DNA of 64,000 nucleotides from Escherichia phage SP27: sequence record LC494302.1; one strand, given 5' to 3'. Made by a program: the position numbers and the translations under genes. Under the pieces are notes generated by a model, which saw only the letters and a list, made by a program, of their open reading frames with translations, did no database searches and had not been told where the DNA came from. Positions 1-14,526 of the stretch are shown piece after piece; the first letter of the stretch is position 1, and every line of letters starts with the position of its first letter.

Positions 1-94
1 CAGGTACAATATTTCCGTACTTAACCATTCTTGTAAAAGGTAACATAAATCCCTCCTTATTCATTATATCATATTTACCCCATAAAGAAAACCC

Positions 95-123
95 TTGACA
101 TCCTTTCAGTACTGGTGTACTAT
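95..123 (+). promoter_or_regulatory. sigma70-like promoter upstream of family A array
   Basis: TTGACA 95-100, 17 bp spacer, TACTAT 118-123; AAGGAG RBS before ATG 149. Confidence 0.45.
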
Positions 124-148
124 AGAAGGAATATAAGGAGAACTACAC

Positions 149-376
149 ATGACAAATACTCTTAAGTACTACCTCAATACTCTAAATGAACTAGAGTACG
201 GGGAATTTCTCGCGGATAGTTCGTGGCTAATTGAGCTAAAAAATTATAATAGTCCAGGATGCACCCTTATGATGAACAATGCAATTGATACCCTCATTGT
301 GAGTATTTTACACAGCAACATCTGCGGGGATAGCAATAAACAATTATCAAAAATCTTAGTACTGCTATCTATATGA
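149..376 (+). CDS. hypothetical small protein, paralog family A (divergent first member)
   Basis: ORF with RBS; N-term KYYLNTL and NNAIDTL core resemble later copies. Confidence 0.55.
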   Translation: MTNTLKYYLNTLNELEYGEFLADSSWLIELKNYNSPGCTLMMNNAIDTLIVSILHSNICGDSNKQLSKILVLLSI

Positions 377-576
377 ATATCGAACAGTACTACATCGATG
401 CACTACCAACAAAAGGTCTACGTGAAAGCCTACTGCATACACAAACTAATTTCAAACACCTCAAACGTAGCCCTAAACTCCTGAACTCGTACAGGAATAA
501 TAACATAAGAAATGCTTTACAAGGGGTAGAATGTATGCAATACTATTACATCCTTACCCTATTAATTGAGTACTAA
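373..576 (+). CDS. hypothetical small protein, paralog family A
   Basis: ATGA overlap with upstream gene; C-term LTLLIEY tail. Confidence 0.6.
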   Translation: MNIEQYYIDALPTKGLRESLLHTQTNFKHLKRSPKLLNSYRNNNIRNALQGVECMQYYYILTLLIEY

Positions 577-577
577 T

Positions 578-787
578 ATGAATACTGAACATAAAGAATT
601 CTACACCAAATACCTTAGCAACGAAGAACAATTGTTTCTAAGGAGTGTATCACCTGTAAGTACCAATACTCAATTCGGTAGAGATTGCTTTAATAATTGT
701 ATACGTAGTACTCTAGAAGCAATCGAATGCAATAACAAAAATATTATGTACTCAGGTTTAATAGGACTAATATATTTCTATGAATAA
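578..787 (+). CDS. hypothetical small protein, paralog family A
   Basis: start moved to ATG 578 (MNTEHKEFY) by paralog alignment; FNNCIRSTLEA core. Confidence 0.6.
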   Translation: MNTEHKEFYTKYLSNEEQLFLRSVSPVSTNTQFGRDCFNNCIRSTLEAIECNNKNIMYSGLIGLIYFYE

Positions 788-974
788 TCATAAAGATTTC
801 TATTGTAGTAAACTACCCAAACAAGAACAGCTATCATTCTCTTTAGCACCACCTATGAGAAAGGATAATCTGTATTATAATTACGATTTCAGGATGGTGA
901 CACGTTATGCAATAGAACATCAGTTCCCTGAAACTAAGTACCGCTCTATCCTGAACCTCATCTTTAAGTTCTAA
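780..974 (+). CDS. hypothetical small protein, paralog family A
   Basis: MNNHKDFY N-terminus; overlaps neighbour. Confidence 0.6.
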   Translation: MNNHKDFYCSKLPKQEQLSFSLAPPMRKDNLYYNYDFRMVTRYAIEHQFPETKYRSILNLIFKF

Positions 975-1026
975 AAGGTACACCAGGGACCGAGTACTTT
1001 AATATAGTAAGGCTAATTACATTATA

Positions 1027-1212
1027 ATGAATCATATAAGCTACTACTACCAACAACTATCCGACAGAGACAAGTACAGTCACAACTCCCATGTGTGGTA
1101 CTACAAACGCGGCAGTATAAGAGACAAACAACATTACTTCTGTATTTCTATTAAAGAAGCACTGACAACTAAGTACACGTACCGAGCAGTACTTAAACTT
1201 ATTGAAATGTAA
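1027..1212 (+). CDS. hypothetical small protein, paralog family A (VLKLI subgroup)
   Basis: C-term YTYRAVLKLIEM shared with next 4 genes. Confidence 0.6.
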   Translation: MNHISYYYQQLSDRDKYSHNSHVWYYKRGSIRDKQHYFCISIKEALTTKYTYRAVLKLIEM

Positions 1213-1222
1213 AGAGAATACT

Positions 1223-1405
1223 ATGAACATTGAATTGTACTTAAGTAAATTACAGCCTGGCGATAGATTCATCTACAATAAGTTCGAATTCAACTACAAG
1301 AACGGGAGCAACAAATATCGTCGAGGATACCTATATACAAGCACAAGAGATGCACAAAACGAAAAGTACACATACAGAGAAGTACTTAAACTAATCTCTA
1401 TTTGA
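1223..1405 (+). CDS. hypothetical small protein, paralog family A (VLKLI subgroup)
   Basis: track ORF uses TTG at 1202; ATG 1223 (MNIELY) preferred; C-term YTYREVLKLISI. Confidence 0.55.
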   Translation: MNIELYLSKLQPGDRFIYNKFEFNYKNGSNKYRRGYLYTSTRDAQNEKYTYREVLKLISI

Positions 1406-1413
1406 GGTAATAT

Positions 1414-1599
1414 ATGAATACATTTGAGTACTATACCAATAAACTATCTATGCCTGAAAGATCTCATCTCTATGTGTGGAGAAATGCGTATAAAAGCGGC
1501 AATAAACTTATACAAAGAAATTCCCTTACAGTGTGTACAAATTTAATTAAAGCAGAGTACCGCACATATATTGAAGTACTCAAACTGATAGCAATATAA
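1414..1599 (+). CDS. hypothetical small protein, paralog family A (VLKLI subgroup)
   Basis: MNTFEYY N-term; C-term IEVLKLIAI. Confidence 0.6.
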   Translation: MNTFEYYTNKLSMPERSHLYVWRNAYKSGNKLIQRNSLTVCTNLIKAEYRTYIEVLKLIAI

Positions 1600-1607
1600 G
1601 GTACTCT

Positions 1608-1787
1608 ATGCAAGAATTCTATATCTATAACCTCCAGCACAAAGATAGATACAACTATAATAAATTCCAAAGGTACTACACAGTCGGGAACAAAAGAGAT
1701 AAAAAACGTTATCTACTCTCGTGTACAGTAGAAGCACAAAACGAAAAGTACACGTACAGAGAAGTACTTAAACTAATCTCAATCTAA
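1608..1787 (+). CDS. hypothetical small protein, paralog family A (59 aa, below ORF-track cutoff)
   Basis: read by hand: MQEFYIYNLQ...EKYTYREVLKLISI; fills gap between neighbours. Confidence 0.55.
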   Translation: MQEFYIYNLQHKDRYNYNKFQRYYTVGNKRDKKRYLLSCTVEAQNEKYTYREVLKLISI

Positions 1788-1794
1788 GGTAGAC

Positions 1795-1983
1795 ATGAAC
1801 ACTTTTGAGTACTACTTCAATAAACTAAACCACATAGAACAAAGTATGCACAACTCATTTATTCAGCACCATCAATCATCTGCACATGGAATTAAAAATA
1901 TATCGATTGAGATTATCACTACCCGTGTACAGTCATCTGAACGTTATATGTATATTGATGTACTGAAACTCATCTCTATGTAA
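1795..1983 (+). CDS. hypothetical small protein, paralog family A (VLKLI subgroup)
   Basis: MNTFEYYFNKL; C-term YMYIDVLKLISM. Confidence 0.6.
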   Translation: MNTFEYYFNKLNHIEQSMHNSFIQHHQSSAHGIKNISIEIITTRVQSSERYMYIDVLKLISM

Positions 1984-1991
1984 GGAATAAT

Positions 1992-2171
1992 ATGCAAGAA
2001 TACTATATAGAACACATAAGCATTAAAGACCGTTTCATGTACGACACCTTCGTGAAGTACTACAACCTGGCAACTAACAGTACTAAAAATATTAATCTCA
2101 ATAGCTGCATTCATCACGCACTAACAAAAGATAATCCCTTCAGGGAAATCCTCGCACTAGCATCTGTATAA
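1992..2171 (+). CDS. hypothetical small protein, paralog family A (59 aa, below ORF-track cutoff)
   Basis: read by hand: MQEYYIEHIS...NSCIHHALTK...; fills gap. Confidence 0.5.
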   Translation: MQEYYIEHISIKDRFMYDTFVKYYNLATNSTKNINLNSCIHHALTKDNPFREILALASV

Positions 2172-2181
2172 AGGAAACCAA

Positions 2182-2841
2182 ATGAAACTTAATGCACACA
2201 GCAAACAATACCTTAAGCACTTTAAGTACCTCAACAGTATTCAAGCAGAATCTATTACATCTGCATATACGTATCACCCAAATGTACTAAAGAAACGAAA
2301 TAAAAAGAAAAAATCCAGAAATGTTCTCGTATCTAAGAACCTCAAATCGTACTTGAAGAAAAATAATATAGCTCTTGCTTTTATTAATATCTATAATACT
2401 GATTTAAAAGTATTGAGTACTAATACCAGCACAAAAGCACTAAAGAATGCATCTATCTATATACACATGGATAATATCCCGTGCACTATAATTCTATCTT
2501 TCGGGAATGTATACTTCTTCGGGAATTGTAATAGCACCCATGATATCAGTACTGCACAATTCCAAATCGGCGATATGTACTGCATGGGTTCAGAAAAAAT
2601 ACACGATAACATGCACTTCTTCCAAAAGCAACGTACTAACGAAACTGATACAGTACTGCAATTCCTCAAAGAATTACAAGGCAAAGAATTATCAGAAGAA
2701 GATCTATTCATGTACAGTACTGTAATCGATAATCCAGAACTCTATAAAAACGCGTACAATCTAACAAAACATGTACAGGAACTTATCAGTACTGATAAGA
2801 AATTTCATCACCTCATTACGTATATTTCAAACTATGTATAA
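2182..2841 (+). CDS. hypothetical protein, family C-like member embedded in family A array
   Basis: 219 aa; contains EEDLFMYSTVID resembling the family C motif. Confidence 0.55.
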   Translation: MKLNAHSKQYLKHFKYLNSIQAESITSAYTYHPNVLKKRNKKKKSRNVLVSKNLKSYLKKNNIALAFINIYNTDLKVLSTNTSTKALKNASIYIHMDNIPCTIILSFGNVYFFGNCNSTHDISTAQFQIGDMYCMGSEKIHDNMHFFQKQRTNETDTVLQFLKELQGKELSEEDLFMYSTVIDNPELYKNAYNLTKHVQELISTDKKFHHLITYISNYV

Positions 2842-3016
2842 AGAATACTACAAAGATAAAATCCCAATGCATCTACAACACCATATACCAAACGTTGCAT
2901 TGGGTATCAAAGATCACGCAAAGATAATGTTCCAACAATGTACTAAGTACACGCTCATATACGATGATAATCCATATATGCTGTACTACGTAGTAATGCT
3001 AACATTCAGGTACTAA
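2834..3016 (+). CDS. hypothetical small protein, paralog family A
   Basis: start placed at ATG 2834 (MYKEYY); C-term VVMLTFRY. Confidence 0.55.
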   Translation: MYKEYYKDKIPMHLQHHIPNVALGIKDHAKIMFQQCTKYTLIYDDNPYMLYYVVMLTFRY

Positions 3017-3017
3017 T

Positions 3018-3197
3018 ATGAATACTTATAAAGAATTCTACCTCTCGTACCTTAATTCCGATATAGTAACATCCAATACATTCAGTACTAAAATTATCTA
3101 TAATGAATTAATGAAAGAATGTATTAAAGGTGCTATTAACCCTAAAGATACGTATGACTTGTACTATGCAGTACTAACCCTTGTTTTCACGAAATAA
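3018..3197 (+). CDS. hypothetical small protein, paralog family A (59 aa, below ORF-track cutoff)
   Basis: read by hand: MNTYKEFYLSYL...; fills gap. Confidence 0.5.
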   Translation: MNTYKEFYLSYLNSDIVTSNTFSTKIIYNELMKECIKGAINPKDTYDLYYAVLTLVFTK

Positions 3198-3205
3198 CAC
3201 ATAAT

Positions 3206-3397
3206 ATGAATAACCACAAAGAATACTACATAGAGAAACTCCCAATGTATCTCCAACACCTTGTACCAACAGAACCATTGGGTATAGAAAAAAACTACGA
3301 AAAAGACTACTTCATTCAGTGCACTAAATCCTCGATATATATTGAAGACTATAATCGAGTACTGTATCACATCCTTTTACTAATATATAGGTACTAA
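3206..3397 (+). CDS. hypothetical small protein, paralog family A
   Basis: MNNHKEYYIEKLP; C-term ILLLIYRY. Confidence 0.6.
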   Translation: MNNHKEYYIEKLPMYLQHLVPTEPLGIEKNYEKDYFIQCTKSSIYIEDYNRVLYHILLLIYRY

Positions 3398-3398
3398 T

Positions 3399-3581
3399 AT
3401 GCACAAAGAATACTACACACAATTTCTCCCCAGCATTTTTGAACACTACGCCAGATACAAAGTCCCTATGGATAACGATTTGGCAGTACTGGGATTCAAT
3501 AACTGCATAGAACGAAGTATAGAAAATAGTAGTAGTTATGACCAGCTATATAACACTATCCTACTTATATTCAGGTACTAA
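3399..3581 (+). CDS. hypothetical small protein, paralog family A
   Basis: MHKEYYTQFLP; FNNCIERSIEN; ILLIFRY. Confidence 0.6.
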   Translation: MHKEYYTQFLPSIFEHYARYKVPMDNDLAVLGFNNCIERSIENSSSYDQLYNTILLIFRY

Positions 3582-3582
3582 C

Positions 3583-3771
3583 ATGCATAAAGAATACTAC
3601 ACAAAATATTTCCCAATGTACCTCAGAACTAATCTATTAGATAAACCTCGCGGTATCAATGCACAAAATGATAAAGTGTATTTTACTATGTGCACTAAAG
3701 CATGTATACTAGATTTTGACAGCTACCATCGAGTACTGTATCATACCCTGTACCTAGCTTTCGTATTCTAA
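3583..3771 (+). CDS. hypothetical small protein, paralog family A
   Basis: start at ATG 3583 (MHKEYYTKYFP), 1 nt after upstream stop as at other junctions. Confidence 0.6.
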   Translation: MHKEYYTKYFPMYLRTNLLDKPRGINAQNDKVYFTMCTKACILDFDSYHRVLYHTLYLAFVF

Positions 3772-3780
3772 GAGAACAAT

Positions 3781-3966
3781 ATGCATAAAGAATTCTACTT
3801 AAGCCATCTGGATCTAAACTCCCAAATGCTTATACCACTAATCCCAATAGATATCAAGGATAAGAAAAATACCGAACAATTCATTTACCATACACAGTGT
3901 GCGATCACCCCAAATTACATTCCATATGAATTGTACTACATTATCGCCCTAATATATAGGTACTAA
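3781..3966 (+). CDS. hypothetical small protein, paralog family A
   Basis: MHKEFYLSHL; C-term IIALIYRY. Confidence 0.6.
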   Translation: MHKEFYLSHLDLNSQMLIPLIPIDIKDKKNTEQFIYHTQCAITPNYIPYELYYIIALIYRY

Positions 3967-3967
3967 T

Positions 3968-4153
3968 ATGCATAGAGAATACTACACACAATTTGTTAAA
4001 GGGAACTACAAACATGCCGTACCCAGAACCCCTTTAAATTCTCATGACCCAAGTACTATATTCTTGTTTAATGACGCAATACGTACAGTACTCAATACTA
4101 AAGATGAAGATGTGCAGTACGTATTCTTACTATTACTTATATACAGACACTAA
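3968..4153 (+). CDS. hypothetical small protein, paralog family A
   Basis: MHREYYTQF; FNDAIRTVLN; LLLLIYRH. Confidence 0.6.
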   Translation: MHREYYTQFVKGNYKHAVPRTPLNSHDPSTIFLFNDAIRTVLNTKDEDVQYVFLLLLIYRH

Positions 4154-4158
4154 CTAAT

Positions 4159-4341
4159 ATGAATAAAGAACATAAAGAATTCTATATACGAAAACTAACA
4201 TTCGTCCCCGTAAGAATATATAAAGAATGCGACCCAAGATTATACCTATGGCACTTCAATGAGTGCATAAAAGATTCTATATACCATAAGAACTATAAAG
4301 AACAATTGTGCTCAGTACTAACACTAGTACTATCATATTAA
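4159..4341 (+). CDS. hypothetical small protein, paralog family A
   Basis: MNKEHKEFYIRKL; FNECIKDSIYH. Confidence 0.6.
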   Translation: MNKEHKEFYIRKLTFVPVRIYKECDPRLYLWHFNECIKDSIYHKNYKEQLCSVLTLVLSY

Positions 4342-4356
4342 TTAATAGAGAATACT

Positions 4357-4548
4357 ATGTATAAAAACTTCTATATAAGTAAACTAAAAGAAAATGAACA
4401 AGTATGGATTAGATCTATAATTCCACTGGCATTTAATAGATATGCATTTAACAGATGTACCGAGATTGCTATAGACCCTTATAATATTAAAGAGAATGTA
4501 CAGTATAATCAGTACTACTATATCTTAATGCTTATATATAGAAAGTAA
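4357..4548 (+). CDS. hypothetical small protein, paralog family A
   Basis: MYKNFYISKL; FNRCTEIAID; ILMLIYRK. Confidence 0.6.
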   Translation: MYKNFYISKLKENEQVWIRSIIPLAFNRYAFNRCTEIAIDPYNIKENVQYNQYYYILMLIYRK

Positions 4549-5185
4549 TTAAACACATAGAGACAGGGGAAGCTCCTAGTGAACAACCTTTATGTACAGG
4601 CGAATTGTTAAAATTCAGCCTGGACAAATGCGATCACTAGGATTCTCCCCAGGCTAAACCCCGTAATCATAGGTAGTCATAAGTAATCATATATAAACAT
4701 TTATATGAGCACCGTAGAATCACAGAATGATTATATATGATTCAGTACTGATTAGTATAGACAAGAATGCTCAAGAATGCACGGGAAGGATTCAGAATGA
4801 TTCAGTACTGATATGCCACTAAGTAGGCAGAGGAAGTCTGCCGTACTTTGTAGTTTCCAAGCTCCTTTTCCATTTTGCAAATTACATCAAATGTAATCAA
4901 AAGTAATCACGCAATGATTAGTACTGAATTATTACTTTCACCTTAATTTCAATTACCCCTTTACCCTTCGGGGTAAAATTCAATTACCCCTTGAGGCTCC
5001 AGCAAAAAGTTGGTTAGTACTCCATCCTAAATCTGGATCGTAAAAAATTTGGAGTACCTATGAAATAAAAGTTGGATCTTCGAAAGTTGAAATTTACGTT
5101 GGGACATATAGGATTTGTGGGATATAATGAGTTTTGTAGCGATACAGATTATACGATTTCAGTACTGAATAATGAAAGAAAGCTA

Positions 5186-5213
5186 TTGACATTATGATTC
5201 AGTACTGTATAAT
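5186..5213 (+). promoter_or_regulatory. orphan sigma70-like promoter with no downstream ORF
   Basis: TTGACA 5186-5191, 16 bp spacer containing AGTACTG, TATAAT 5208-5213. Confidence 0.5.
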
Positions 5214-5549
5214 GTTCTACATAGGGTGATGAGTTGCTGCGAACAATTCATTTACTCTACCTCCTGTCGTGAGACAGTACAGAAAAGATAGTTCCTCCTG
5301 TGGTGGTACATCTTTTTGAACCTCATATGAAAATCGTAATAACAGTACTGATATTAACAGAATGGTGTCAGTACTGATTTTAATCTAAAGCATTATGCCA
5401 CCAGCACAAGTTGGTGGATTCCCTCTAACAGTATTCAGTACTACATGATAGTCTTCATCCTCCTAGGGTAACATAGTGAGGGCTATGATGGCAGTACTGA
5501 ATACTCCCTTTCAAAAGATAGATCTATGGTATAGTACTGACGGATTTTG

Positions 5550-5745
5550 GGTGTAGTTACCCTGGATGGATTTTGGACGTAGATATGTCTAGCCCTCCAG
5601 AAGTCTGGAAGTAAAGATGGCTATCCATCTAGACGGCTAAACGGATAGATTTCTGGATGGCTGGATGGCTAGACGTTTGGACGGCTAAACGGCTAGATGG
5701 TTACACGTCTGGAAGTATAGACGGCTAAATCAAAATTTTATTTTG
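5550..5745. repeat. cluster of short direct repeats (iteron-like)
   Basis: GACGGCTAAA x3, TCTGGAAGTA x2, several GGATGG/CCATCC and CTAGACG motifs within about 200 bp, locally GC-richer. Confidence 0.5.
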
Positions 5746-5950
5746 TTTTTTCCAATAGTTCCCCTACCGCGTGGGGATAGTTTCCCCGCAGTATCTGGAG
5801 TTAGATTTTTCTGAATCTGGAATCATTATCTTATAAACTGGGGGCAATGTCAACGGCCTGGACGGATATTTTTAAAAATTTTTTCAGTACTGAATTTTGG
5901 GCGTAACTATGCACCCGGTGGGCTTGAGTCTTTCTCGACTTGATGGAACT

Positions 5951-5978
5951 ATTATACAGTACTGAAAAAATAAAGCAA
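5951..5978 (-). promoter_or_regulatory. minus-strand sigma70-like promoter
   Basis: reverse complement reads TTGCTT-16-TATAAT; transcribes leftward through a GCACCCGGTGGG element. Confidence 0.4.
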
Positions 5979-6166
5979 TACCCTGGAAGCAAAAAAGTTT
6001 TAATTAATTTGCTTGCTATCCTGGGCCGGACTATGGTACTATATTTCAGTACTGAGAAAGTGCGTTTACCTGCTAGGGTGCGGGAGTGTATCCTTTTTTT
6101 ATATCTTGAATTTTGGGCGTAATTCCGCACCCTCTGGGGTTTCCGCTTTCTCGCGTCTATGTAGTA

Positions 6167-6194
6167 ATTATACGCTTTTTCAGGATCAAGTCAA
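6167..6194 (-). promoter_or_regulatory. minus-strand sigma70-like promoter
   Basis: reverse complement reads TTGACT-16-GCGTATAAT. Confidence 0.45.
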
Positions 6195-6349
6195 TACCTA
6201 AAAACAAAATAATTGAAAATAATTTAACGCGTTTAAACGGCCCGTAACGCCCTGGAATGATTAGAATGGTGCAAATGTATAGCTTAGGTGTATTAATGCG
6301 TTAGAATGCGTCTGAGGCCGTTTTATGGGGTGTAGTAGTGATTTGGTTG

Positions 6350-6440
6350 ATTCAGTACTGAATAATAGTACTCCTATATAGAAAGATAGTTCCCCTGGAT
6401 GGTTGCAGTACTGAATAATAGTACTCCTATATAGAAAGAA
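6350..6440. repeat. direct repeat of about 34 bp, two copies
   Basis: CAGTACTGAATAATAGTACTCCTATATAGAAAGA occurs twice about 55 bp apart. Confidence 0.7.
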
Positions 6441-6470
6441 AACTATTTTAAAAGTATTTGTAGAAAGTAC

Positions 6471-6530
6471 TTGCACCGTACTGATAAAAGCGTATAATGT
6501 TTTACATCGAGAGCGGGAACACTTCCCGCT
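6471..6530 (+). promoter_or_regulatory. class I early promoter plus 5' stem-loop cassette
   Basis: TTGCAC 6471-6476, TATAAT 6493-6498, GTTTTACATC; hairpin AGCGGGAAcacTTCCCGCT 6512-6530. Confidence 0.65.
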
Positions 6531-6553
6531 ACACATTAAGAGAGATTAAAACG

Positions 6554-6916
6554 ATGGCGACTCAAATCAATAAAATCATGCTTAACCTGGTAAACTTCCG
6601 CGATGAGATGAAAGGTCTTCCGGCTGAAACTGTAAAAATTCACATTGCAGCTTATCGGGAACTTATTGCAATGTTGCCGCTTAAGCGTGAACAATACGCC
6701 GCTACTTTGATGCTGGATTCAATGATCCATATAATGATCTCAAATGATTTAACGATGGTTTATCAGTACATGGGCGAAAATTTCGCGGTGTGTAGTAAGC
6801 CAGTACCAGGGATGGCAACAACTGAGGAATTGCACGGCTTAAACTTAAAACAAGATGCATGGGATAATATGCCTCGTTTCCTGGTATGGGCTGACAGTGG
6901 CAAAATTTACAAATAA
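6554..6916 (+). CDS. hypothetical protein
   Basis: start at ATG 6554 (MATQINK) downstream of cassette; 120 aa. Confidence 0.6.
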   Translation: MATQINKIMLNLVNFRDEMKGLPAETVKIHIAAYRELIAMLPLKREQYAATLMLDSMIHIMISNDLTMVYQYMGENFAVCSKPVPGMATTEELHGLNLKQDAWDNMPRFLVWADSGKIYK

Positions 6917-6930
6917 GTTTAATAAAGTAC

Positions 6931-6989
6931 TTGCAAACTATGTTTAATGGCGTATAATGTTTTACATCAGGTGGGGAATAGTTCCCCAC
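6931..6989 (+). promoter_or_regulatory. class I early promoter plus 5' stem-loop cassette
   Basis: AAAGTACTTGCAA -35, GCGTATAAT -10 at 6953-6958; hairpin GTGGGGAAtagTTCCCCAC 6971-6989. Confidence 0.7.
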
Positions 6990-7008
6990 TATATAAGAGG
7001 ATTAAAAA

Positions 7009-7248
7009 ATGGCTAAATCAAAAATGTTCTTAGGTCACAAAAACAAAACTCATTGGAATGTAAGCCTGTGGATTAATAACGATGAGGGATTGTATCGGTT
7101 GGCCCTGGACTTTATTGCCGCCAATACTAATCGCAATGATGCGGCCCGTCATATGATGTTATTTTTAGAACAGACTGGACAAGATAAAACACCGGACGGA
7201 TTCAAATATAGCACTACTGCGATCCGTGCGGCGATGGTTGGAATGTAA
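7009..7248 (+). CDS. hypothetical protein, paralog of 9050..9289
   Basis: shares HKNKTHWNVSLWINN and TPDGFKYSTTAIRAAMVGM with the 9050 gene. Confidence 0.65.
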   Translation: MAKSKMFLGHKNKTHWNVSLWINNDEGLYRLALDFIAANTNRNDAARHMMLFLEQTGQDKTPDGFKYSTTAIRAAMVGM

Positions 7249-7334
7249 TAGAATTTATTTAAAGTACTATCATTTTTTTGCGATAGTACTTTATAATAGT
7301 GTTTTATTCATACACCAACGATAAGGGCAACAGC

Positions 7335-7601
7335 ATGAATATTAAGTATTTTGCGACGCGTGAACAAGCTCGGATCGCCGCACGCCAGGACGGGGCAACG
7401 TTTAAAGATATGGGAGCGGGATCGGCAAGTGGTGAACGTTGGGCCATTGTAAAGCGTAGTACGGCCAGATCTTTACAGTACTGGTTAGCGGCCTTAAAAA
7501 GTCCCGATAGTGTATCGCGTCGAGTGGTAGAAATAAAGCTCGACCGAAAGGGCAACCGCGTGACCGTGTACCGTACTAAAAAGATTGCAGTACTTGAATA
7601 A
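7335..7601 (+). CDS. hypothetical protein, paralog of 20376..20771
   Basis: shares FATREQARIAAR..GETFKDMG and DRKGNRVTVY; start at ATG 7335. Confidence 0.6.
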   Translation: MNIKYFATREQARIAARQDGATFKDMGAGSASGERWAIVKRSTARSLQYWLAALKSPDSVSRRVVEIKLDRKGNRVTVYRTKKIAVLE

Positions 7602-7608
7602 AAAGTAC

Positions 7609-7667
7609 TTGCAAACTATGTTTAATGGCGTATAATGTTTTACATCGAGAGCGGGAACACTTCCCGC
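7609..7667 (+). promoter_or_regulatory. class I early promoter plus 5' stem-loop cassette
   Basis: TTGCAA 7609-7614, TATAAT 7631-7636; hairpin GCGGGAAcacTTCCCGC 7651-7667. Confidence 0.7.
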
Positions 7668-7688
7668 CTATAACCTGGAGTAATAAAA

Positions 7689-7919
7689 ATGACTAATATG
7701 TATATGACTGAAGTTAAAACCGTAAAAGATACTACCACGAATAAAACTACTTACTTACAGCGGATCTGTGGTGTATGGCAACGTATCAGCAAATCAAAGT
7801 ACTTTAAATTAACATCATATGCAAATCGTTCGGATTCATTCAGTACTGAAATAAAAGGTAATAAAGTACACCAATACGGCACTTATTATTATTATAGCCT
7901 GGACGCGATTGCAGTATAA
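7689..7919 (+). CDS. hypothetical protein
   Basis: GGAG RBS; 76 aa. Confidence 0.55.
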   Translation: MTNMYMTEVKTVKDTTTNKTTYLQRICGVWQRISKSKYFKLTSYANRSDSFSTEIKGNKVHQYGTYYYYSLDAIAV

Positions 7920-7957
7920 GCAGTTTACAAATCTTTACAATTGCCGGTATTGACTTA

Positions 7958-7988
7958 TTTTGTCAGTACTGGCATAATGTATTCATTG
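7958..7988 (+). promoter_or_regulatory. class II promoter (TTGACT ... AGTACTGGCATAAT)
   Basis: ATTGACTtattttgtcAGTACTGGCATAAT; no ORF downstream; faces a minus-strand promoter. Confidence 0.45.
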
Positions 7989-8093
7989 GCAGATAAGCCG
8001 TAGCCCATAGGGTGCGGGAGTGTATCTATAGAAAAAGTAGTTTAGTATAGTTACAATTGTGCACCCGGTGGGTTAGCTGTTGTCATGGGGTAT

Positions 8094-8122
8094 ATTATGC
8101 CAGTACTTGATAATGCTGTCAA
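8094..8122 (-). promoter_or_regulatory. minus-strand class II promoter, convergent with the 7958 promoter
   Basis: reverse complement reads ATTGACAgcattatcaAGTACTGGCATAAT. Confidence 0.45.
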
Positions 8123-8168
8123 TACTTTTTTTTTAATATTCAGTACTGAAAACTATTTTTAAAAAGTA

Positions 8169-8196
8169 CTTGCAAACTATGTTTAAAGGCGTATAA
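8169..8196 (+). promoter_or_regulatory. class I early promoter
   Basis: AAAAGTACTTGCAAactatgtttaaaGGCGTATAATGTTTTACATC. Confidence 0.65.
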
Positions 8197-8205
8197 TGTT
8201 TTACA

Positions 8206-8277
8206 TCAGGACGGGGAACGAAATAAGTAACTTCCCGTTAAGTAGCCCAGGAGTAAGGCACACGAAAAACTCCCCTG
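8206..8277 (+). other. conserved structured RNA-like element, copy 1
   Basis: CAGG-ACGGGGAA...TTCCCGT...CTCCCCTG nested complementarity; near-identical copy at 19183-19251. Confidence 0.4.
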
Positions 8278-8287
8278 ATAAAATAGT

Positions 8288-8315
8288 TTGACAATTGTTT
8301 TTAAAAGCGTATAAT
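8288..8315 (+). promoter_or_regulatory. sigma70-like promoter
   Basis: TTGACA 8288-8293, 16 bp spacer, TATAAT 8310-8315. Confidence 0.6.
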
Positions 8316-8347
8316 ACTTACATCAACTACTGAATGAGGGTTACAAA

Positions 8348-8959
8348 ATGAAAACTATCACTACTACTACTTATGTTATGGCTTTTTCTGAATTGAACGC
8401 AGAACAACAAACGTCAGCTATCGAACTGGTTCGGGAACGTGAAAAAAACTTAAACGATGATTATTTTTCTGAAAGTGAAATTGAATACTATAAAGAAACA
8501 GTACTACCGGAATATGGCATTAATGACGCTGAAATACAATTCAGTGGCTTTTGGTCCCAGGGTGACGGTGCATCAATCAGTACTGACCACGTTGACGCAG
8601 TGAAGTTTTTACGCAAGGTAAGAGCATTAACTAAGTATCGCTCAATCCGTCACTTGCTGAATGAAGATGATTTGGCGATGAGTGTAAAGCGTTCGCACTC
8701 CCACTACTCGCATGAGAATACTGTAAGCGGGTACATTGAATCGGCTTACACTGATTTAACCGCAAAACAAGAAACGTTAGTTAATGAGCTTGAGGAACTA
8801 CTCACTGAAACTATTCGTGAATTATCCCGCAAGTTGTACCGTGATTTAGAGAATGCATATGAGGATCAATTCACTACTGAAAACATTACGGCACTGATTG
8901 AGGGTAACGAATATCAATTCAATGTTATTGATGGAGTAGTAGAATCAATCGAATATTAA
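8348..8959 (+). CDS. hypothetical acidic protein
   Basis: 203 aa; GAGGG RBS; no family recognised. Confidence 0.6.
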   Translation: MKTITTTTYVMAFSELNAEQQTSAIELVREREKNLNDDYFSESEIEYYKETVLPEYGINDAEIQFSGFWSQGDGASISTDHVDAVKFLRKVRALTKYRSIRHLLNEDDLAMSVKRSHSHYSHENTVSGYIESAYTDLTAKQETLVNELEELLTETIRELSRKLYRDLENAYEDQFTTENITALIEGNEYQFNVIDGVVESIEY

Positions 8960-8971
8960 TTTAAAAAGTAC

Positions 8972-9031
8972 TTGCAAACTAAGTTTAAAAGCGTATAATA
9001 CTTTATATCGAGGCGGGGAGTGGTTCCCCGC
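8972..9031 (+). promoter_or_regulatory. class I early promoter plus 5' stem-loop cassette
   Basis: TTGCAA 8972-8977, TATAAT 8994-8999; hairpin GCGGGGAgtggTTCCCCGC 9013-9031. Confidence 0.65.
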
Positions 9032-9049
9032 TCAAACGAGGATTTAAAA

Positions 9050-9289
9050 ATGGCTAGTACTAAAACTTACAACGGACACAAAAACAAAACTCATTGGAAT
9101 GTAAGCCTTTGGATTAATAACGGTGAGTCATTGTATCGGCTTGCTCAAAGTTGCATCGCACAAAGTAGAACTAAAGATATTGCTGCGGAATGTATGTACC
9201 GCAGATTAAAAGCCAACGGTACTACTACAACGCCGGACGGCTTTAAGTATAGCACTACTGCGATCCGTGCTGCAATGGTTGGAATGTAA
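9050..9289 (+). CDS. hypothetical protein, paralog of 7009..7248
   Basis: start at ATG 9050 (MASTKTYNGHKNKTHWNVSLWINN); conserved C-term. Confidence 0.65.
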   Translation: MASTKTYNGHKNKTHWNVSLWINNGESLYRLAQSCIAQSRTKDIAAECMYRRLKANGTTTTPDGFKYSTTAIRAAMVGM

Positions 9290-9328
9290 TATTCAGTACT
9301 GAGATAATGGCGGGAACTATTACCCGCC
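9279..9328 (+). promoter_or_regulatory. promoter plus stem-loop
   Basis: TTGGAA 9279-9284, AGTACTGAGATAAT -10; hairpin GGCGGGaactattaCCCGCC 9309-9328. Confidence 0.4.
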
Positions 9329-9346
9329 TTTACTGAGGGTTATCTA

Positions 9347-9634
9347 ATGAGTAAAGTAATAAAGTACAATGTGTTAAGCAAATCATTGTCTATCAGTGAA
9401 TGCACCGATGGTTTTTGGATGTACGATGAAACGCGTGGCATGAATTTAGCTATGCGTGCAAAAACTGCTGAGGCGGCGTATATTCAAGCACTGGAATACT
9501 ACCAGGAACGTTTGAAGGAAGTAGAAGAAGATTATAAAAGCCTCAAAGCGAAAGTAGATCATTTCGTCGGTCAATTCGTGGAAGACAACGACGAGGACGG
9601 GCACTACTGCGACCGTTGCGGATCTTACAGTTAA
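9347..9634 (+). CDS. hypothetical protein
   Basis: 95 aa; C-terminal CDRCGSYS. Confidence 0.55.
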   Translation: MSKVIKYNVLSKSLSISECTDGFWMYDETRGMNLAMRAKTAEAAYIQALEYYQERLKEVEEDYKSLKAKVDHFVGQFVEDNDEDGHYCDRCGSYS

Positions 9635-9651
9635 GTACTAAGGATTATATA

Positions 9652-9864
9652 ATGAGTGATTTAATTGAACGTATCAAAGAGCTTGAAGAAAAAGAATTGC
9701 AGTTGATCGGGTTACGGAATAAAGTATTCCATGATTTAGGTGGCTTTATTAATGCCTGGGATAGTGGCGATCCTGATGCGTTACCTGCTAACCGCCAGGC
9801 GATGATCAATGATGTGCGTGGTGTCTTTGATTATGTTTTAAAAGTACTAGACACTAAGCAATAA
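9652..9864 (+). CDS. hypothetical protein
   Basis: start at ATG 9652 (MSDLIERIKELEEKE). Confidence 0.55.
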   Translation: MSDLIERIKELEEKELQLIGLRNKVFHDLGGFINAWDSGDPDALPANRQAMINDVRGVFDYVLKVLDTKQ

Positions 9865-9925
9865 AGGCGTATAATACTTTATATTGGTACTGACAAACAT
9901 TATAAGCGATGCAGGAGCTTTAATC

Positions 9926-10111
9926 ATGACAACATTATCTGAGGTTATCCGCGATCAAGCTGCAAAGGCTGGAATGACTGTTATCAATGTAGGGATCAAG
10001 ATTGAGATCTCCCCTAACGAGTTGCAAGGGATTCCCGATCCTACTAGCTGGGATCGTGCTGGGCGAATGATGAGTAATGCTTCATTACTGGACGGTACAA
10101 AATTTAATTAA
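9926..10111 (+). CDS. hypothetical protein
   Basis: start at ATG 9926 after AGGAG RBS (MTTLSEVIRDQ). Confidence 0.5.
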   Translation: MTTLSEVIRDQAAKAGMTVINVGIKIEISPNELQGIPDPTSWDRAGRMMSNASLLDGTKFN

Positions 10112-10118
10112 AAAGTAC

Positions 10119-10178
10119 TTGCAATTAGTTTTCAGTACTGTATAATGGTTTACATCAAAGGGAGAAATGGTTCTCCCT
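10119..10178 (+). promoter_or_regulatory. class I early promoter plus 5' stem-loop cassette
   Basis: TTGCAA 10119-10124, TATAAT 10141-10146; hairpin AGGGAGAAatggTTCTCCCT 10159-10178. Confidence 0.65.
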
Positions 10179-10196
10179 GGTAATGAGGAAAATACA

Positions 10197-10418
10197 ATGG
10201 CTAATATCACTACTCTTTCCCAACTGGAAGCACTGGTTAAATCTATGCGGGAACATGCCGACAAAATCGGCGTACAAGATCCAGCCGTTTGCTTCTGCGA
10301 CGAATTGAATGATGATACACTGGTAATAGCAGAAGTCCAGGACGTTTCTAACTATTCCTCGCGTTACACTGGCGGCGTAGCAAATAAAGGTGACTTCTGT
10401 TTATACCTTACAAAATAA
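10197..10418 (+). CDS. hypothetical protein
   Basis: start at ATG 10197 (MANITTLSQ) after GAGGA RBS. Confidence 0.55.
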   Translation: MANITTLSQLEALVKSMREHADKIGVQDPAVCFCDELNDDTLVIAEVQDVSNYSSRYTGGVANKGDFCLYLTK

Positions 10419-10453
10419 CAACGCGGGGAGATAATAACTCCCCGTTACTTTTT
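10419..10453 (+). terminator. intrinsic terminator
   Basis: AACGCGGGGAGataataaCTCCCCGTT stem followed by T-run. Confidence 0.5.
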
Positions 10454-10524
10454 CAGTACTGAATCATTTAATAGACGGATCTCGGCACCCGGTGGGTTAG
10501 TGACTGTTTCGTCTTGATGTAGTA

Positions 10525-10553
10525 ATTATGCCAGTACTGGATGCACTTGTCAA
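10525..10553 (-). promoter_or_regulatory. minus-strand class II promoter
   Basis: reverse complement reads TTGACAagtgcatccAGTACTGGCATAAT; transcribes leftward through GCACCCGGTGGG element. Confidence 0.45.
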
Positions 10554-10586
10554 CAACTATTTTTCAAATACTTTTTATTAAAATAC

Positions 10587-10640
10587 TTGCAATTAGTTTT
10601 TAAACGCGTATAATGTTTTGCATAGGGGGAGCGGTTCCCC
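10587..10640 (+). promoter_or_regulatory. class I early promoter plus 5' stem-loop cassette
   Basis: TTGCAA 10587-10592, TATAAT 10609-10614; hairpin GGGGGAgcggTTCCCC. Confidence 0.6.
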
Positions 10641-10661
10641 TGGTAACTAAGGAATAATAAA

Positions 10662-10898
10662 ATGCTTGAACAAATCAAATCAACGTCTGCGAATGTAACG
10701 GGAACGGTTGTACACTTTACTAGTGATGAATCGCGGGGCGTTCCCTATTGTGCTGTACATGTAAACACTGATGGCAACTACTGGTTTACGGTTTACGGAT
10801 CATATTCATTTGGACGGCCAGGGCATCAAAAAATTCTGGATAAAGTACAACCAACGGGTAAAAATATCACTGCCGAAATGTTTTATAAAAAATCATAA
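10662..10898 (+). CDS. hypothetical protein
   Basis: 78 aa downstream of cassette. Confidence 0.55.
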   Translation: MLEQIKSTSANVTGTVVHFTSDESRGVPYCAVHVNTDGNYWFTVYGSYSFGRPGHQKILDKVQPTGKNITAEMFYKKS

Positions 10899-10903
10899 AG
10901 TAC

Positions 10904-10962
10904 TTGCAATTAGTTTTTAGTACTGTATAATATTTTACATCGCAAGGGGAAACGGTTTCCCC
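10904..10962 (+). promoter_or_regulatory. class I early promoter plus 5' stem-loop cassette
   Basis: TTGCAA 10904-10909, TATAAT 10926-10931; hairpin GGGGAAacggTTTCCCC 10946-10962. Confidence 0.65.
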
Positions 10963-10982
10963 TGGTAACTAAGGATAATCAA

Positions 10983-11282
10983 ATGAAAATTGCAATCATC
11001 GCCCTGGCTTTATCTGTTTCCTCTTTCGCTGTTAATGCGTCGTTAGATGTAAGTAGTGAAAAATTCATTCAGTGCACTGTTGCAATGACCGATGAAAGAA
11101 CTGGCGAGATTGTATTAAAGGATTTAGAGATCCAGCCGGAAGCATTTAAAAACGGCCCGTTCCATGAAGAAGACGAAAACGGTAGCACGACAATTTATTA
11201 TGATGCCAGTTCCAAGCGTGGATCGGTCACTGTAATGGATACTGAGAAAGTAACACACACAGGCGTTATTAATTGCCGTTGA
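10983..11282 (+). CDS. small secreted or periplasmic protein (predicted signal peptide)
   Basis: N-terminus MKIAIIALALSVSSFAVNAS is signal-peptide-like (basic start, hydrophobic core, A-x-A-like site). Confidence 0.55.
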   Translation: MKIAIIALALSVSSFAVNASLDVSSEKFIQCTVAMTDERTGEIVLKDLEIQPEAFKNGPFHEEDENGSTTIYYDASSKRGSVTVMDTEKVTHTGVINCR

Positions 11283-11303
11283 TAGATACTACGGGGTAAC
11301 ATC

Positions 11304-11534
11304 ATGACTAAGCGAATTGTTTTACTTAACGAAAGCAGTACTACACAACTACTTAACGCCGTGCATTATGATATTGAAACGAGCGTTAATCTTATCAGTA
11401 CTGTAGTACTGTTGGACACTGGAAAGGTCGCCAATGATAAAGCGATTGCAGGTATATTAACGGATCTTGAGCCTGGTAGCAGTGCACCCATAACGTTAAA
11501 TGGTAAAGTGTTTAATATTTTACTCACTGATTAA
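11304..11534 (+). CDS. hypothetical protein
   Basis: 76 aa; followed by terminator. Confidence 0.55.
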   Translation: MTKRIVLLNESSTTQLLNAVHYDIETSVNLISTVVLLDTGKVANDKAIAGILTDLEPGSSAPITLNGKVFNILLTD

Positions 11535-11540
11535 GTACAT

Positions 11541-11568
11541 AGCCCACCAGGTGGGCTTTTTTGTTTTT
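11541..11568 (+). terminator. intrinsic terminator
   Basis: AGCCCACCaGGTGGGCT hairpin followed by TTTTTTGTTTTT. Confidence 0.75.
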
Positions 11569-11767
11569 ATAGTATCGTAGTACTGAGATACTTTGAAAAT
11601 AGTTTTAAGAAAGTAGTTGACATTACCACAGAAAAGCGTAGAATGTATTACATCAAGACGGGGAGCACTAAGTAGACCGCCAGTAAGTCGAACGAAAAAC
11701 TGGACACGTCGAGAAAACTTTGATACACTAATAAACGTAAACTAAACTTTAATTGAGGATTTATAAA

Positions 11768-12250
11768 ATGGCTAATGTAAAATCATTCATCAAAGCACTG
11801 GTAGCAAATGAAACTAACGTCGCGGCTGAGATCCTGGCTGAACTGGATAACGATACCATGAAAGCGGTACGCAATAATTTTAACATCGCGTACAGTACTG
11901 CGAAAGAACTACAAGCAAATAAAGCGGCAGAAATTGAAGCGGCAAAGGCGGCCCGTGAAGCAGAACTACAAGCAACAATCGAAAGTATCCAGGCGGCGGT
12001 GTCTGGATTGGATCTGGAAGTGGTTGTGGAAATGGCACATAAAGCCCTGGCGGTTAAGTATGGTGAAGATAAGCCAGAATCTAAACCTAAAAAATGGATT
12101 CAAGAACGTGTTACTGTAGTACTTGATAACGGGGAAGAACATATGATTCCTGTACGCGGTAACTGCATTGCGGTAGTACTGGACGCTATCAAAGAAAGCG
12201 GTATGACTCGCGAGGAATGGATCGAAGCTCATCGCAAAGTTGAAGCATAA
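11768..12250 (+). CDS. hypothetical protein
   Basis: start at ATG 11768 (MANVKSF) after GAGGA RBS; Ala/Glu-rich central helix. Confidence 0.55.
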   Translation: MANVKSFIKALVANETNVAAEILAELDNDTMKAVRNNFNIAYSTAKELQANKAAEIEAAKAAREAELQATIESIQAAVSGLDLEVVVEMAHKALAVKYGEDKPESKPKKWIQERVTVVLDNGEEHMIPVRGNCIAVVLDAIKESGMTREEWIEAHRKVEA

Positions 12251-12271
12251 CAATTAAAGTACTGAATCACT

Positions 12272-12300
12272 AGCCCACCTTAAACAGTGGGCTTTTTTGT
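12272..12300 (+). terminator. intrinsic terminator
   Basis: AGCCCACcttaaacaGTGGGCT followed by TTTTTTGT. Confidence 0.7.
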
Positions 12301-12453
12301 GTCTGTAGTATTCCAGTCCACCAGCACCGCCTAGAATCGATTCTAACGCATTAAACTGATTATCTGATGCATTGCCCTAGCTGGTGGCGTGAAGGTCGTT
12401 AGAATGCGATTGAGAGCGTTTAAAGTATTTTGCAAAAAGTAATAAAAAGTACT

Positions 12454-12512
12454 TGCACGATTAAGAGATTAGCGTATAATGTTTTACATCGAGAGGGGGA
12501 AACGGTTCTCCT
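12454..12512 (+). promoter_or_regulatory. class I early promoter plus 5' stem-loop cassette
   Basis: TTGCAC 12454-12459, GCGTATAAT 12475-12480; hairpin GGGGGAAacggTTCTCC. Confidence 0.6.
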
Positions 12513-12535
12513 TCCAAATCAAAGGAATCAAAACA

Positions 12536-12763
12536 ATGGCTATTATCATTACTCGCGTATCTGGTACTACTGGCAACGAACAAGTAGTTGCAGTCATTAC
12601 CAACAAGGAAGGTGCGGAATTGCAAAATGCAATGAATACCTGGGCCGTTAATGAGTTCGGTCAGTGGGCAAGTGTAGCATACATTGAAACCTATCAAGTG
12701 CCGTCGATTAGTTTAACTGATTTGGGCGTTGAGCGTATCCTTTGCCTGGATGAATTAAATTAA
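12536..12763 (+). CDS. hypothetical protein
   Basis: start at ATG 12536 (MAIIITRVSG). Confidence 0.55.
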   Translation: MAIIITRVSGTTGNEQVVAVITNKEGAELQNAMNTWAVNEFGQWASVAYIETYQVPSISLTDLGVERILCLDELN

Positions 12764-12772
12764 AAAAGTACT

Positions 12773-12832
12773 TGCAAAGTAAATCGAATAAAGTATAATA
12801 CATTACATCAAGGGGAGAAATGGTTCTCCCCA
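12773..12832 (+). promoter_or_regulatory. class I early promoter plus 5' stem-loop cassette
   Basis: TTGCAA 12773-12778, TATAAT 12794-12799; hairpin GGGGAGAAatggTTCTCCCC 12813-12832. Confidence 0.65.
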
Positions 12833-12848
12833 CTACAAGGAAACTAAA

Positions 12849-12992
12849 ATGAAAACTTGTCAATGTGGTCAGAAATCTATTACGGGTTTAAAGCGGGGCG
12901 TTGCTCTTTGCCAGTACCATTATAATTTACAAGTATGGGGTAAAGAATGGGCCGACCAGGTGGAAGCAGCAAAGAAAGCAAAAAGTAAGTAA
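12849..12992 (+). CDS. hypothetical small Cys-containing protein (47 aa, below ORF-track cutoff)
   Basis: read by hand: MKTCQCGQKSITGLKRGVALCQYHYN...; own cassette and RBS. Confidence 0.45.
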   Translation: MKTCQCGQKSITGLKRGVALCQYHYNLQVWGKEWADQVEAAKKAKSK

Positions 12993-13011
12993 AAATATTA
13001 TCACAGTACTA

Positions 13012-13040
13012 TTGACATAGTTTGATAGTACTGGCATAAT
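13012..13040 (+). promoter_or_regulatory. class II promoter
   Basis: CAGTACTATTGACAtagtttgatAGTACTGGCATAAT; no 5' hairpin. Confidence 0.6.
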
Positions 13041-13073
13041 AGATTTTATCAAGACAACTAAGAGGAAATTAAA

Positions 13074-13418
13074 ATGGCTAACATCAATACTATAGCAGCA
13101 CAAAATATCAACCTGTCTTCTGTTGAAGTTGTACACATTGCCGCCCGGCGTTGGTTCCAGGCGTCTTATGGTAATACTTATTTCTCTTTAACGGTAGATG
13201 TTGAAATCAATGGCGAATTTATTGAAGTAGTAAACGTGCCGTTCCAATATGGCTACGGGGATCATTTTGACACTGTAGCAATGGAAGAATTTAGCAAGGT
13301 TATTAATATGGAAGGTAAAGAGTTTTTACGCGGTTCTTATCTTTCCCGTTTTTGCCGTGATAATAATATCACTGTTTATAGTTCGGTAACTGATGTTAAA
13401 CGCAAAAAAGATCTTTAA
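13074..13418 (+). CDS. hypothetical protein, paralog of 19957..20280
   Basis: shares GNTY, YGYG and C-terminal DVKRKKD with the 19957 gene. Confidence 0.6.
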   Translation: MANINTIAAQNINLSSVEVVHIAARRWFQASYGNTYFSLTVDVEINGEFIEVVNVPFQYGYGDHFDTVAMEEFSKVINMEGKEFLRGSYLSRFCRDNNITVYSSVTDVKRKKDL

Positions 13419-14092: not shown

Positions 14093-14097
14093 TTAAT

Positions 14098-14523: not shown

Positions 14524-14526
14524 TAC

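Follow-up and report, generated by a model that had tools for sequence, protein, structure and literature searches.

Why would a phage with a genome of about 350 kb spend some 4.4 kb of it on 18-19 versions of a single orphan mini-protein? The question is raised by positions 149-4548 of a 64,000-nucleotide stretch of DNA from Escherichia phage SP27 (sequence record LC494302.1), hereafter the window. There, a model given only the letters and a list of open reading frames (ORFs), here called the sequence-only reading, had noticed a tandem array of about 19 mini-genes. Our analysis leads us to suggest, with a probability of about one half, that the array encodes early, non-structural, diversified accessory proteins, each engaging a different host or defence target.

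The block consists of 19 back-to-back genes of 59-75 amino acids on the + strand, together with one unrelated gene of 219 amino acids. Its coding density is 96.7%, and the intergenic distances lie between -8 and +15 nt, apart from a single gap of 52 nt. The + strand holds 21 ORFs of at least 59 amino acids and the - strand 2; in 300 shuffles that kept the dinucleotide frequencies, the mean was 0.48 and the maximum 3. The number of mini-genes proposed from the letters was thus correct, as were the three members of 59 amino acids (starting at 1608, 1992 and 3018). The array is not uninterrupted, however, since the 219-residue gene, which had escaped mention, sits in the middle of it. The layout is as follows.

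149-376, + strand: member 1 (candidate member only), 75 amino acids, acidic, with an LKYYLNTL start and an ILVLLSI end
373-576, + strand: member 2, divergent type, 67 amino acids, overlapping member 1 by 4 nt (ATGA)
578-787, + strand: member 3, LIYRY type, 69 amino acids
780-974, + strand: member 4, LIYRY type, 64 amino acids
975-1026: the sole sizeable intergenic gap, overlapping a weak promoter-like site (999-1028, TTAATA-18-TATAAT)
1027-1212, 1223-1405 and 1414-1599, + strand: members 5-7, VLKLISI type
1608-1787, 1795-1983 and 1992-2171, + strand: members 8-10, VLKLISI type
2182-2841, + strand: unrelated orphan gene of 219 amino acids, phrog_29152
2834-3016, 3018-3197 and 3206-3397, + strand: members 11-13, LIYRY type
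3399-3581, 3583-3771 and 3781-3966, + strand: members 14-16, LIYRY type
3968-4153, 4159-4341 and 4357-4548, + strand: members 17-19, LIYRY type

Members 5-10 are 59-62 amino acids long, and members 11-19 are 59-63.

The mini-genes are real protein-coding genes. All 19 frames are intact in the window, and nearly all are intact in seven further genomes in which the homologous locus was annotated (8 genomes and 137 genes in all, which also served to enrich the profiles used below). The pooled ratio of nonsynonymous to synonymous substitution rates (dN/dS) of orthologues was 0.52 for phage E9.1, 0.35 for fEgEco12, 0.44 for 121Q, 0.31 for A4 and 0.46 for TH47, based on 12, 89, 43, 132 and 94 synonymous differences, respectively. 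By segment, it was 0.21 over the first 12 codons and 0.44 both in the middle and over the last 15 codons. Neighbouring small genes of the terminal repeat that follows the array gave 0.22-0.27, indicating that the mini-genes are under purifying selection that is ~1.3 to 2 times more relaxed than that of their neighbours.

Might the array nevertheless hold no functional family at all, but decaying duplicates, the remnant of one gene, or a DNA-level repeat (for packaging or replication, for example) with incidental ORFs? The dN/dS above that of neighbouring genes, the free loss of copies among strains, the position near the physical genome end and the ORFs left unannotated in several GenBank records would all agree with this. 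Such an explanation is, however, hardly credible given the intact frames, a dN/dS well below 1 with many synonymous changes, an ORF excess of ~40-fold over shuffles and the confident fold predictions described below. In addition, the similarity between copies is found mainly at the protein level, and Tandem Repeats Finder detected no array of ~190 nt period. The degenerate remnant of a single longer gene, an alternative raised by the sequence-only reading itself, is excluded, since the units have individual start and stop codons, are conserved in relatives as separate genes and are homologous to one another, not successive parts of one protein.

Repeats at the DNA level are concentrated in the 50-70 nt across each gene junction, at spacings of ~190, 380 and 570 nt. 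Whole cassettes could naturally recombine at these repeats, either unequally or between genomes, and such similarity would favour cassette reshuffling. The pattern TACTAA-T-ATG, taken earlier to be repeated from junction to junction, exists but belongs to a minority of them: its exact form, TACTAATATG, was found at 4 junctions only, and the shorter TAATATG occurs 7 times in 1-4600, with 6 of the 7 at junctions. Members 5-10 have an AAGG or GAGG ribosome-binding site after each stop, 7-10 nt ahead of the next ATG. Several junctions among members 11-19 read AGG TAC TAA T ATG, so that the last codons of one gene provide the ribosome-binding site for the next.

The claim that all 19 genes form one family proved to be right for 18 of them. 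Alignment confirmed the shared motifs, namely the N-terminal (K)E[FY]Y...L with an invariant Tyr, the central F..C[TI] and the C-terminal Y..[IV]L.L[IV]. The two C-terminal subtypes described before were likewise recovered, with sequences ending in either ...VLKLISI or ...LLIYRY. A hidden Markov model (HMM) made from members 11-19 alone found member 3 (E 3e-12), member 4 (E 2e-9) and member 7 (E 2e-4), and matched no further ORF within the 64 kb window. Using profiles from the 8 genomes, HHalign related the VLKLISI type to the LIYRY type with a probability of 95% (E 3.6e-8, 53 columns), and the orthologue profile of the member-2 type to the LIYRY type with a probability of 92% (E 5e-7, 57 columns). 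The member-1 type reached at most 2.3% against every other group, which is not significant. By these profile comparisons, 18 of the 19 mini-genes are one homologous family, and member 1, which is kept as the first array gene in relatives, is a candidate by position, size and end motifs. Foldseek gave no link between the models of the two subtypes, so their relationship rests on HHalign. In PHROGs v4, 11 of the 19 members matched phrog_11711 (function unknown); the best match (E 5e-28) is full-length and pairs residues 3-63 with profile positions 1-62 out of 62. This group covers the LIYRY type only; there is no PHROG for members 1 and 2 or for the VLKLISI type, as searches with members 1, 2 and 8 gave no match.

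Structure prediction, proposed earlier as a check, gave confident AlphaFold2 folds for both subtypes, which are predicted to be small helical bundles. The model of member 13 (3206-3397; alignment of 64 sequences) has a predicted local distance difference test score (pLDDT) of 89.9 and a predicted template modelling score of 0.74, with helices at 3-9, 14-17, 30-45 and 49-62. That of member 8 (1608-1787; VLKLISI-type sequences only) has a pLDDT of 89.8 and four helices at 2-7, 11-26, 29-43 and 49-58. By column entropy the two ends are conserved and the middle is variable; the central 30-35 residues are strongly divergent between paralogues. Tyrosine makes up 11% of the mini-proteins and their net charge ranges from -3.4 to +5.6, with 4 of the 6 VLKLISI-type members being basic (pI 9.4-9.6, net charge +4.5 to +5.6). 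The products are predicted to be soluble, non-virion helical-bundle proteins of ~7 kDa. A transmembrane or secreted nature was considered and rejected: the hydrophobic tail is short (~12-14 residues) and predicted to be a core helix, and a signal sequence is missing.

How does this set behave among related phages? Copy number ranges from 14 to 21 in the 8 genomes (window 19, E9.1 21, fEgEco12 20, A4 17, 121Q 16, TH47 15, JNE01 14, Turkey5 15). Clustering of the 137 genes at 60% identity gave 44 groups, and gene order is partly shuffled among genomes; one group (f), for instance, is present in E9.1, fEgEco12 and TH47 and absent from the window and 121Q. Within one genome, the identity of paralogues has a maximum of 45-59% and a median of 27-30% (~28%). 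As even the closest pair is only 45-59% identical, no recent dosage amplification has taken place, and judging by the sequences genomes differ in copy number according to which of the distinct, old paralogues they possess. The block has been exchanged as a whole in JNE01 and Turkey5, where the flanks are conserved: in a DNA comparison of E9.1 with JNE01 the flanks are 89-94% identical, while the array retains only two short patches at 71-74%, and the JNE01 mini-proteins share 27-59% identity with their best match in the window. Gene accordions of the poxvirus K3L type consist of recent, near-identical copies selected for dosage. The array resembles them in its tandem copies of varying number and differs in that its genes are far from near-identical.

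A strain-specific, reshuffled set between conserved flanks is equally a signature of exclusion or immunity loci. The mini-proteins could accordingly serve phage competition or protection of the infected cell, as superinfection exclusion proteins, decoys or immunity factors against related jumbo phages, and expression from a host-type promoter would fit such a role. The exclusion proteins Imm and Sp of phage T4, however, possess a membrane-spanning segment or a signal sequence, neither of which is seen here, and the C-terminal hydrophobic stretch of the mini-proteins is predicted by the models to pack into the bundle. We consider this explanation rather improbable.

The genome setting places the array next to a physical end. 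In a megablast search, window 1-6500 had vB_EcoM_E9.1 as its best match (97.7% identity over 100% of the query), and the 41 matching records all belong to the 121Q/PBECO4 group except for one Erwinia record. These are Rak2-like Asteriusvirus myoviruses of ~350 kb, for several of which direct terminal repeats of ~21 kb have been determined (PMC11895373, PMC13070987). We initially entertained a nucleus-forming (Goslar-like) phage, a reading that was dropped as the literature places 121Q/PBECO4 with the Rak2-like Asteriusvirus. PhageTerm together with restriction digests has fixed the genome ends of fEgEco12 experimentally (PMC13070987). The first base of fEgEco12 corresponds in alignment to window 4822 and the last to window 25750; the window is therefore a collapsed map comprising the right edge of the unique region, one copy of the repeat and the left edge of the unique region.

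4549-4821: non-coding spacer of 274 bp separating the last mini-gene from the direct terminal repeat
4822-25750: direct terminal repeat of ~21 kb (20.9 kb), mapped from the fEgEco12 termini
4822-4842, + strand: first bases of the terminal repeat, with the hairpin GGCAGAGGAAGTCTGCC (4823-4842) at the physical genome end

The array, which ends at 4548, consequently lies 274 bp outside the direct terminal repeat, not within it.

Three sites bear on the expression of the mini-genes.

95-123, + strand: sigma-70-type promoter-like site, TTGACA-17-TACTAT, with AGTACTG in the spacer (10/12 consensus matches)
135-140, + strand: strong Shine-Dalgarno sequence AAGGAG, 8 nt ahead of the first ATG
3716-3744, + strand: candidate internal promoter in member 15, TTGACA-N10-AGTACTG-TATCAT (11/12 matches), 37 nt before member 16

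The site at 95-123, already spotted by the sequence-only reading, sits in the divergent intergenic region between an RCC1-like array on the - strand and the mini-gene array. All 9 loci compared share an identical -35 element and the AAGGAG sequence, and their -10 element reads TACTAT, TACAAT or TAGAAT. The conservation of the promoter-like site and ribosome-binding site extends to JNE01 and Turkey5, whose downstream genes differ, which supports the view of an 'expression socket' that stays the same while its cargo, diverged small helical proteins, varies. The further proposal of one promoter and a single operon is plausible and not certain, given a second site of the same class inside member 15. 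This site is intact in the window, E9.1 and 121Q, is degraded in fEgEco12 and A4, and may be a by-product of coding for R-V-L-Y-H. No terminator-like hairpins were found within the array. A single operon would be the simplest reading of the sequence, and two units are possible.

The same promoter class abounds in the neighbourhood. Strong promoter-like matches number 49 on the + strand and 14 on the - strand of the whole window, and perfect 12/12 sites (TTGACA-16/17/18-TATAAT) number 13 and 0, respectively. Twelve of these 13 lie within the terminal repeat (TTGACA-16/17-TATAAT, 5186-24443). The repeat promoters share the architecture TTGACA-N9-11-AGTACTG-TATAAT, with AGTACTG mostly abutting the -10 element, and the site at 95-123 represents a variant of this architecture; in total, AGTACT is present in 18 of 29 strong promoter-like sites.

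It is here that another role comes into question, namely that the mini-proteins act on the nucleic acid of the phage itself, as DNA/RNA-binding regulators or nucleoid-type proteins that would, for example, recognise the AGTACT palindrome and time an early-transcription switch. This is suggested by the strongly basic character of four of the six VLKLISI-type members, by the 12.6-fold over-representation of AGTACT together with its frequency in strong promoter-like sites, and by the promoter-dense terminal repeat adjoining the array. A structural match to helix-turn-helix or other known small DNA-binding folds was not found, and we regard the idea as unlikely.

Searches for relatives provided no functional clue from outside the group. 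The mini-proteins matched no Pfam family, a sequence profile search of the PDB found nothing, Foldseek against BFVD returned family members only, and PADLOC, which covers anti-phage defence components, gave isolated single-member matches only, at E 0.001 or worse. A search of 5.8 billion proteins produced 53 clusters, all of ~60 amino acids; when 1.84 billion representatives were scanned exhaustively by profile, 35 proteins were retrieved, also all of ~60 amino acids and without fusion to an informative domain. Every database match that has a named source or lies on a long contig is Asteriusvirus-like, and so are all 35 phage records found by tblastn with member 13 as the only query. On the evidence of these searches, the family is restricted to Asteriusvirus phages. 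In many Asteriusvirus genomes (Sharanji, BF17, PBECO4, slurp01, Ecwhy_1 and others) the orthologue of member 13 is unannotated or the record is without annotation, and the family is for this reason under-counted in protein databases. A literature search for a published description of the family found nothing relevant.

The neighbouring genes on the opposite strand bring up the virion. Upstream of the array (window 1-46, - strand) lie tandem RCC1-like ('regulator of chromosome condensation') paralogues, of which locus L001 1-6046 contains six complete copies and one cut by the locus edge; their copy number likewise varies among phages, and two homologues, gp549 and gp551, are virion proteins of phAPEC6 (PMC7247149). 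Since such paralogues are found in phAPEC6 virions and the group shows an inner body (PMC7247149, PMC5646251), the mini-proteins, some of which are basic, might be structural or packaged, that is, small internal head, inner-body or DNA-condensing proteins injected with the DNA and working with the RCC1-like proteins. The phAPEC6 virion proteome, however, comprises 62 proteins identified by mass spectrometry, one of 4.66 kDa included, with no member of the mini-gene family among them (PMC7247149 Table 1). The mini-genes are moreover transcribed divergently from the RCC1-like genes and follow a promoter-like site of the sigma-70 early type, and the T4-type late motif TATAAATA is missing from the + strand of the whole window. 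A packaged role is therefore very unlikely; both this explanation and the absence of a functional family are largely excluded by the virion proteome and the coding statistics.

What remains favoured is the set of early accessory proteins directed at host or defence targets, for which the following course of events may be proposed. After DNA entry, the host sigma-70 RNA polymerase would initiate at the conserved promoter at 95-123, and the packed 4.4 kb block would be transcribed into one mRNA, or possibly two. Ribosomes would enter at AAGGAG and then move from gene to gene through coupling at the junctions, which consist of 4- or 8-nt overlaps, TAA-N-ATG, or AGG/AAGG sites that lie within the final codons or directly behind them. 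The conserved core of the fold would come from two helices, K-E-Y-Y...L at the N-terminus and Y..IL.LI at the C-terminus, with a middle part that differs among paralogues. Each paralogue may bind a distinct host or defence target during takeover. Among isolates, the set would be reshuffled by loss, gain and replacement of whole ~190 bp cassettes. From the organisation of the locus and from analogy, we infer that the genes are expressed early and polycistronically, that their products act as binders and what kind of targets these have. A bolder version, in which the array is a cassette-style mini-binder set with a fixed two-ended helical scaffold and a hypervariable middle, placed behind a constant promoter and ribosome-binding site and swapped among phage lineages by recombination at the conserved junctions, each protein neutralising a different host defence or host factor, seems doubtful to us at present.

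The analogy is with several known systems. The host-takeover module of SPO1, the pre-early genes of T5 and the 'Tre' genes of Twort-like phages are small-gene clusters in or near long terminal repeats. The array is like these clusters, and like that of the related phage CBB, in that orphan genes of <100 amino acids are clustered at or beside a long direct repeat and are non-structural; the strong host-sigma promoters of those clusters may have a counterpart in the promoter-like site at 95-123. The clusters of SPO1, T5 and Twort-like phages are, on the other hand, mostly made up of unrelated genes, often with their own promoters, whereas here one family occurs 18-19 times in tight coupling. We found no sequence or fold similarity of the mini-proteins to the SPO1, T5, Twort-like or CBB clusters. 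The MGF families of African swine fever virus and the terminal host-range genes of poxviruses have a documented role in host range or immune evasion. They, too, are tandem, old, diverged paralogues near the termini that vary in content and copy number around a conserved core. They belong to another host domain and show no homology; the likeness is organisational only, and a comparable host-range or immune role is proposed for the array. CBB has RpoD-like promoters in a region of short ORFs ahead of its terminal repeat, and this region is viewed as serving early host takeover (PMC5259590).

Several results weigh against an early set of target-binding proteins. Promoter-like matches in 1-6600 number 26, compared with 29.3 in shuffles, so there is no excess, and the promoter argument rests on position, conservation and class resemblance. 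Our literature search found no Asteriusvirus transcriptome from which expression and timing could be read. Positive selection was sought by segment and not detected: dN/dS exceeds 1 in no segment, and an arms race is thus not demonstrated at the codon level. Finally, the position of the array outside the terminal repeat makes the analogy with repeat-encoded early genes imperfect.

The unrelated 219-residue gene within the array has a PHROG match of its own (phrog_29152, function unknown, E 3e-117) and no match in Pfam or to the mini-gene family HMM. Its homologues occur in the same phage group only. In JNE01, Turkey5 and metagenome loci an ORF of 222-224 amino acids is annotated at its position, and the JNE01 copy is <40% identical to the window gene.

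Tandem gene arrays in 121Q and phage G have been remarked upon by Hua et al. in 2017 (PMC5646251), a remark echoed for phAPEC6 (PMC7247149). Although it concerns the same phage group and phenomenon, the 121Q remark is one sentence without coordinates, family definition or function (PMC5646251). It also describes 'very similar' copies, while the median paralogue identity in the mini-gene array is 28%. A second tandem array of 23 mini-genes (65-90 amino acids, conserved LGTNYQE motif) is present at 25848-31373. It begins 98 bp past the repeat, its start is preceded by TTGACT-17-TATTAT, and a stray copy lies at 45748-45939. As 121Q has only 16 copies of the family described here and this separate 23-copy array exists, the remark was probably about another array, and the one at 25848-31373 may be the '>30 very similar genes' array of 121Q (PMC5646251). 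Kinship of the second array with the family at 149-4548 was examined and rejected (HHalign probability <2%). Two further paralogue families of 7 copies each were noted, one of ~115-125 amino acids (31607, 40434-41523, 47088-47775, 49327) and one of ~150-160 amino acids (41533-43845, 48852, 50086).

The surrounding DNA has several other peculiarities. The 1.9 kb at 4549-6496, which span the genome end, are without convincing genes and are rich in TCAGTACTGA palindromes (19 AGTACT sites) and in short repeats of 10-11 nt; this stretch may serve packaging or end recognition, as well as regulation. No Rfam families or tRNAs were found in window 1-7000. In the whole window, AGTACT (for example at 108-113, 4746-4751 and 5202-5207) occurs 270 times against 21 expected (the 12.6-fold excess given above), and GTAC 631 times against 201. 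The AGTACT excess is seen in all three codon frames with a preference for CAGTACTG and falls to about 0 in 36-40 kb, where AGTAC remains common; a literature search on this over-representation found nothing relevant. GCGC is absent from the whole window against 55 expected, which suggests avoidance of a HhaI-type restriction site. On the coding strand of window 1-4000 the GC skew is negative (-0.13 to -0.23) and the AT skew high (0.18), while the GC skew is positive in the rest of the window on the same coding strand. The skew of window 1-4000 fits an unusual composition, with 11% Tyr, TAC preferred over TAT (82 vs 50) and GTA as the dominant Val codon.

Tandem arrays had been noted in 121Q (2017), early orphan genes of small size close to terminal repeats are a familiar theme, and no new category is proposed here; the literature searched contains no description of this family or its subtypes, nor of the predicted fold, the hypervariability and the location beside the repeat. 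Annotation stands to gain in practice from a defined family with coordinates and a profile. Coliphages that are candidates for therapy and almost identical otherwise carry different sets, and several such arrays, this one included, adjoin the terminal repeat. Were the cassette-style array, together with the second array of 23 copies, to be confirmed, the repeat borders would be dedicated diversity-generating zones of jumbo phage genomes. If the mini-proteins are effectors directed at host or defence, the locus would represent a compact library of ~44 or more natural small binders and could determine host range in Asteriusvirus phages, which have been proposed for therapy.

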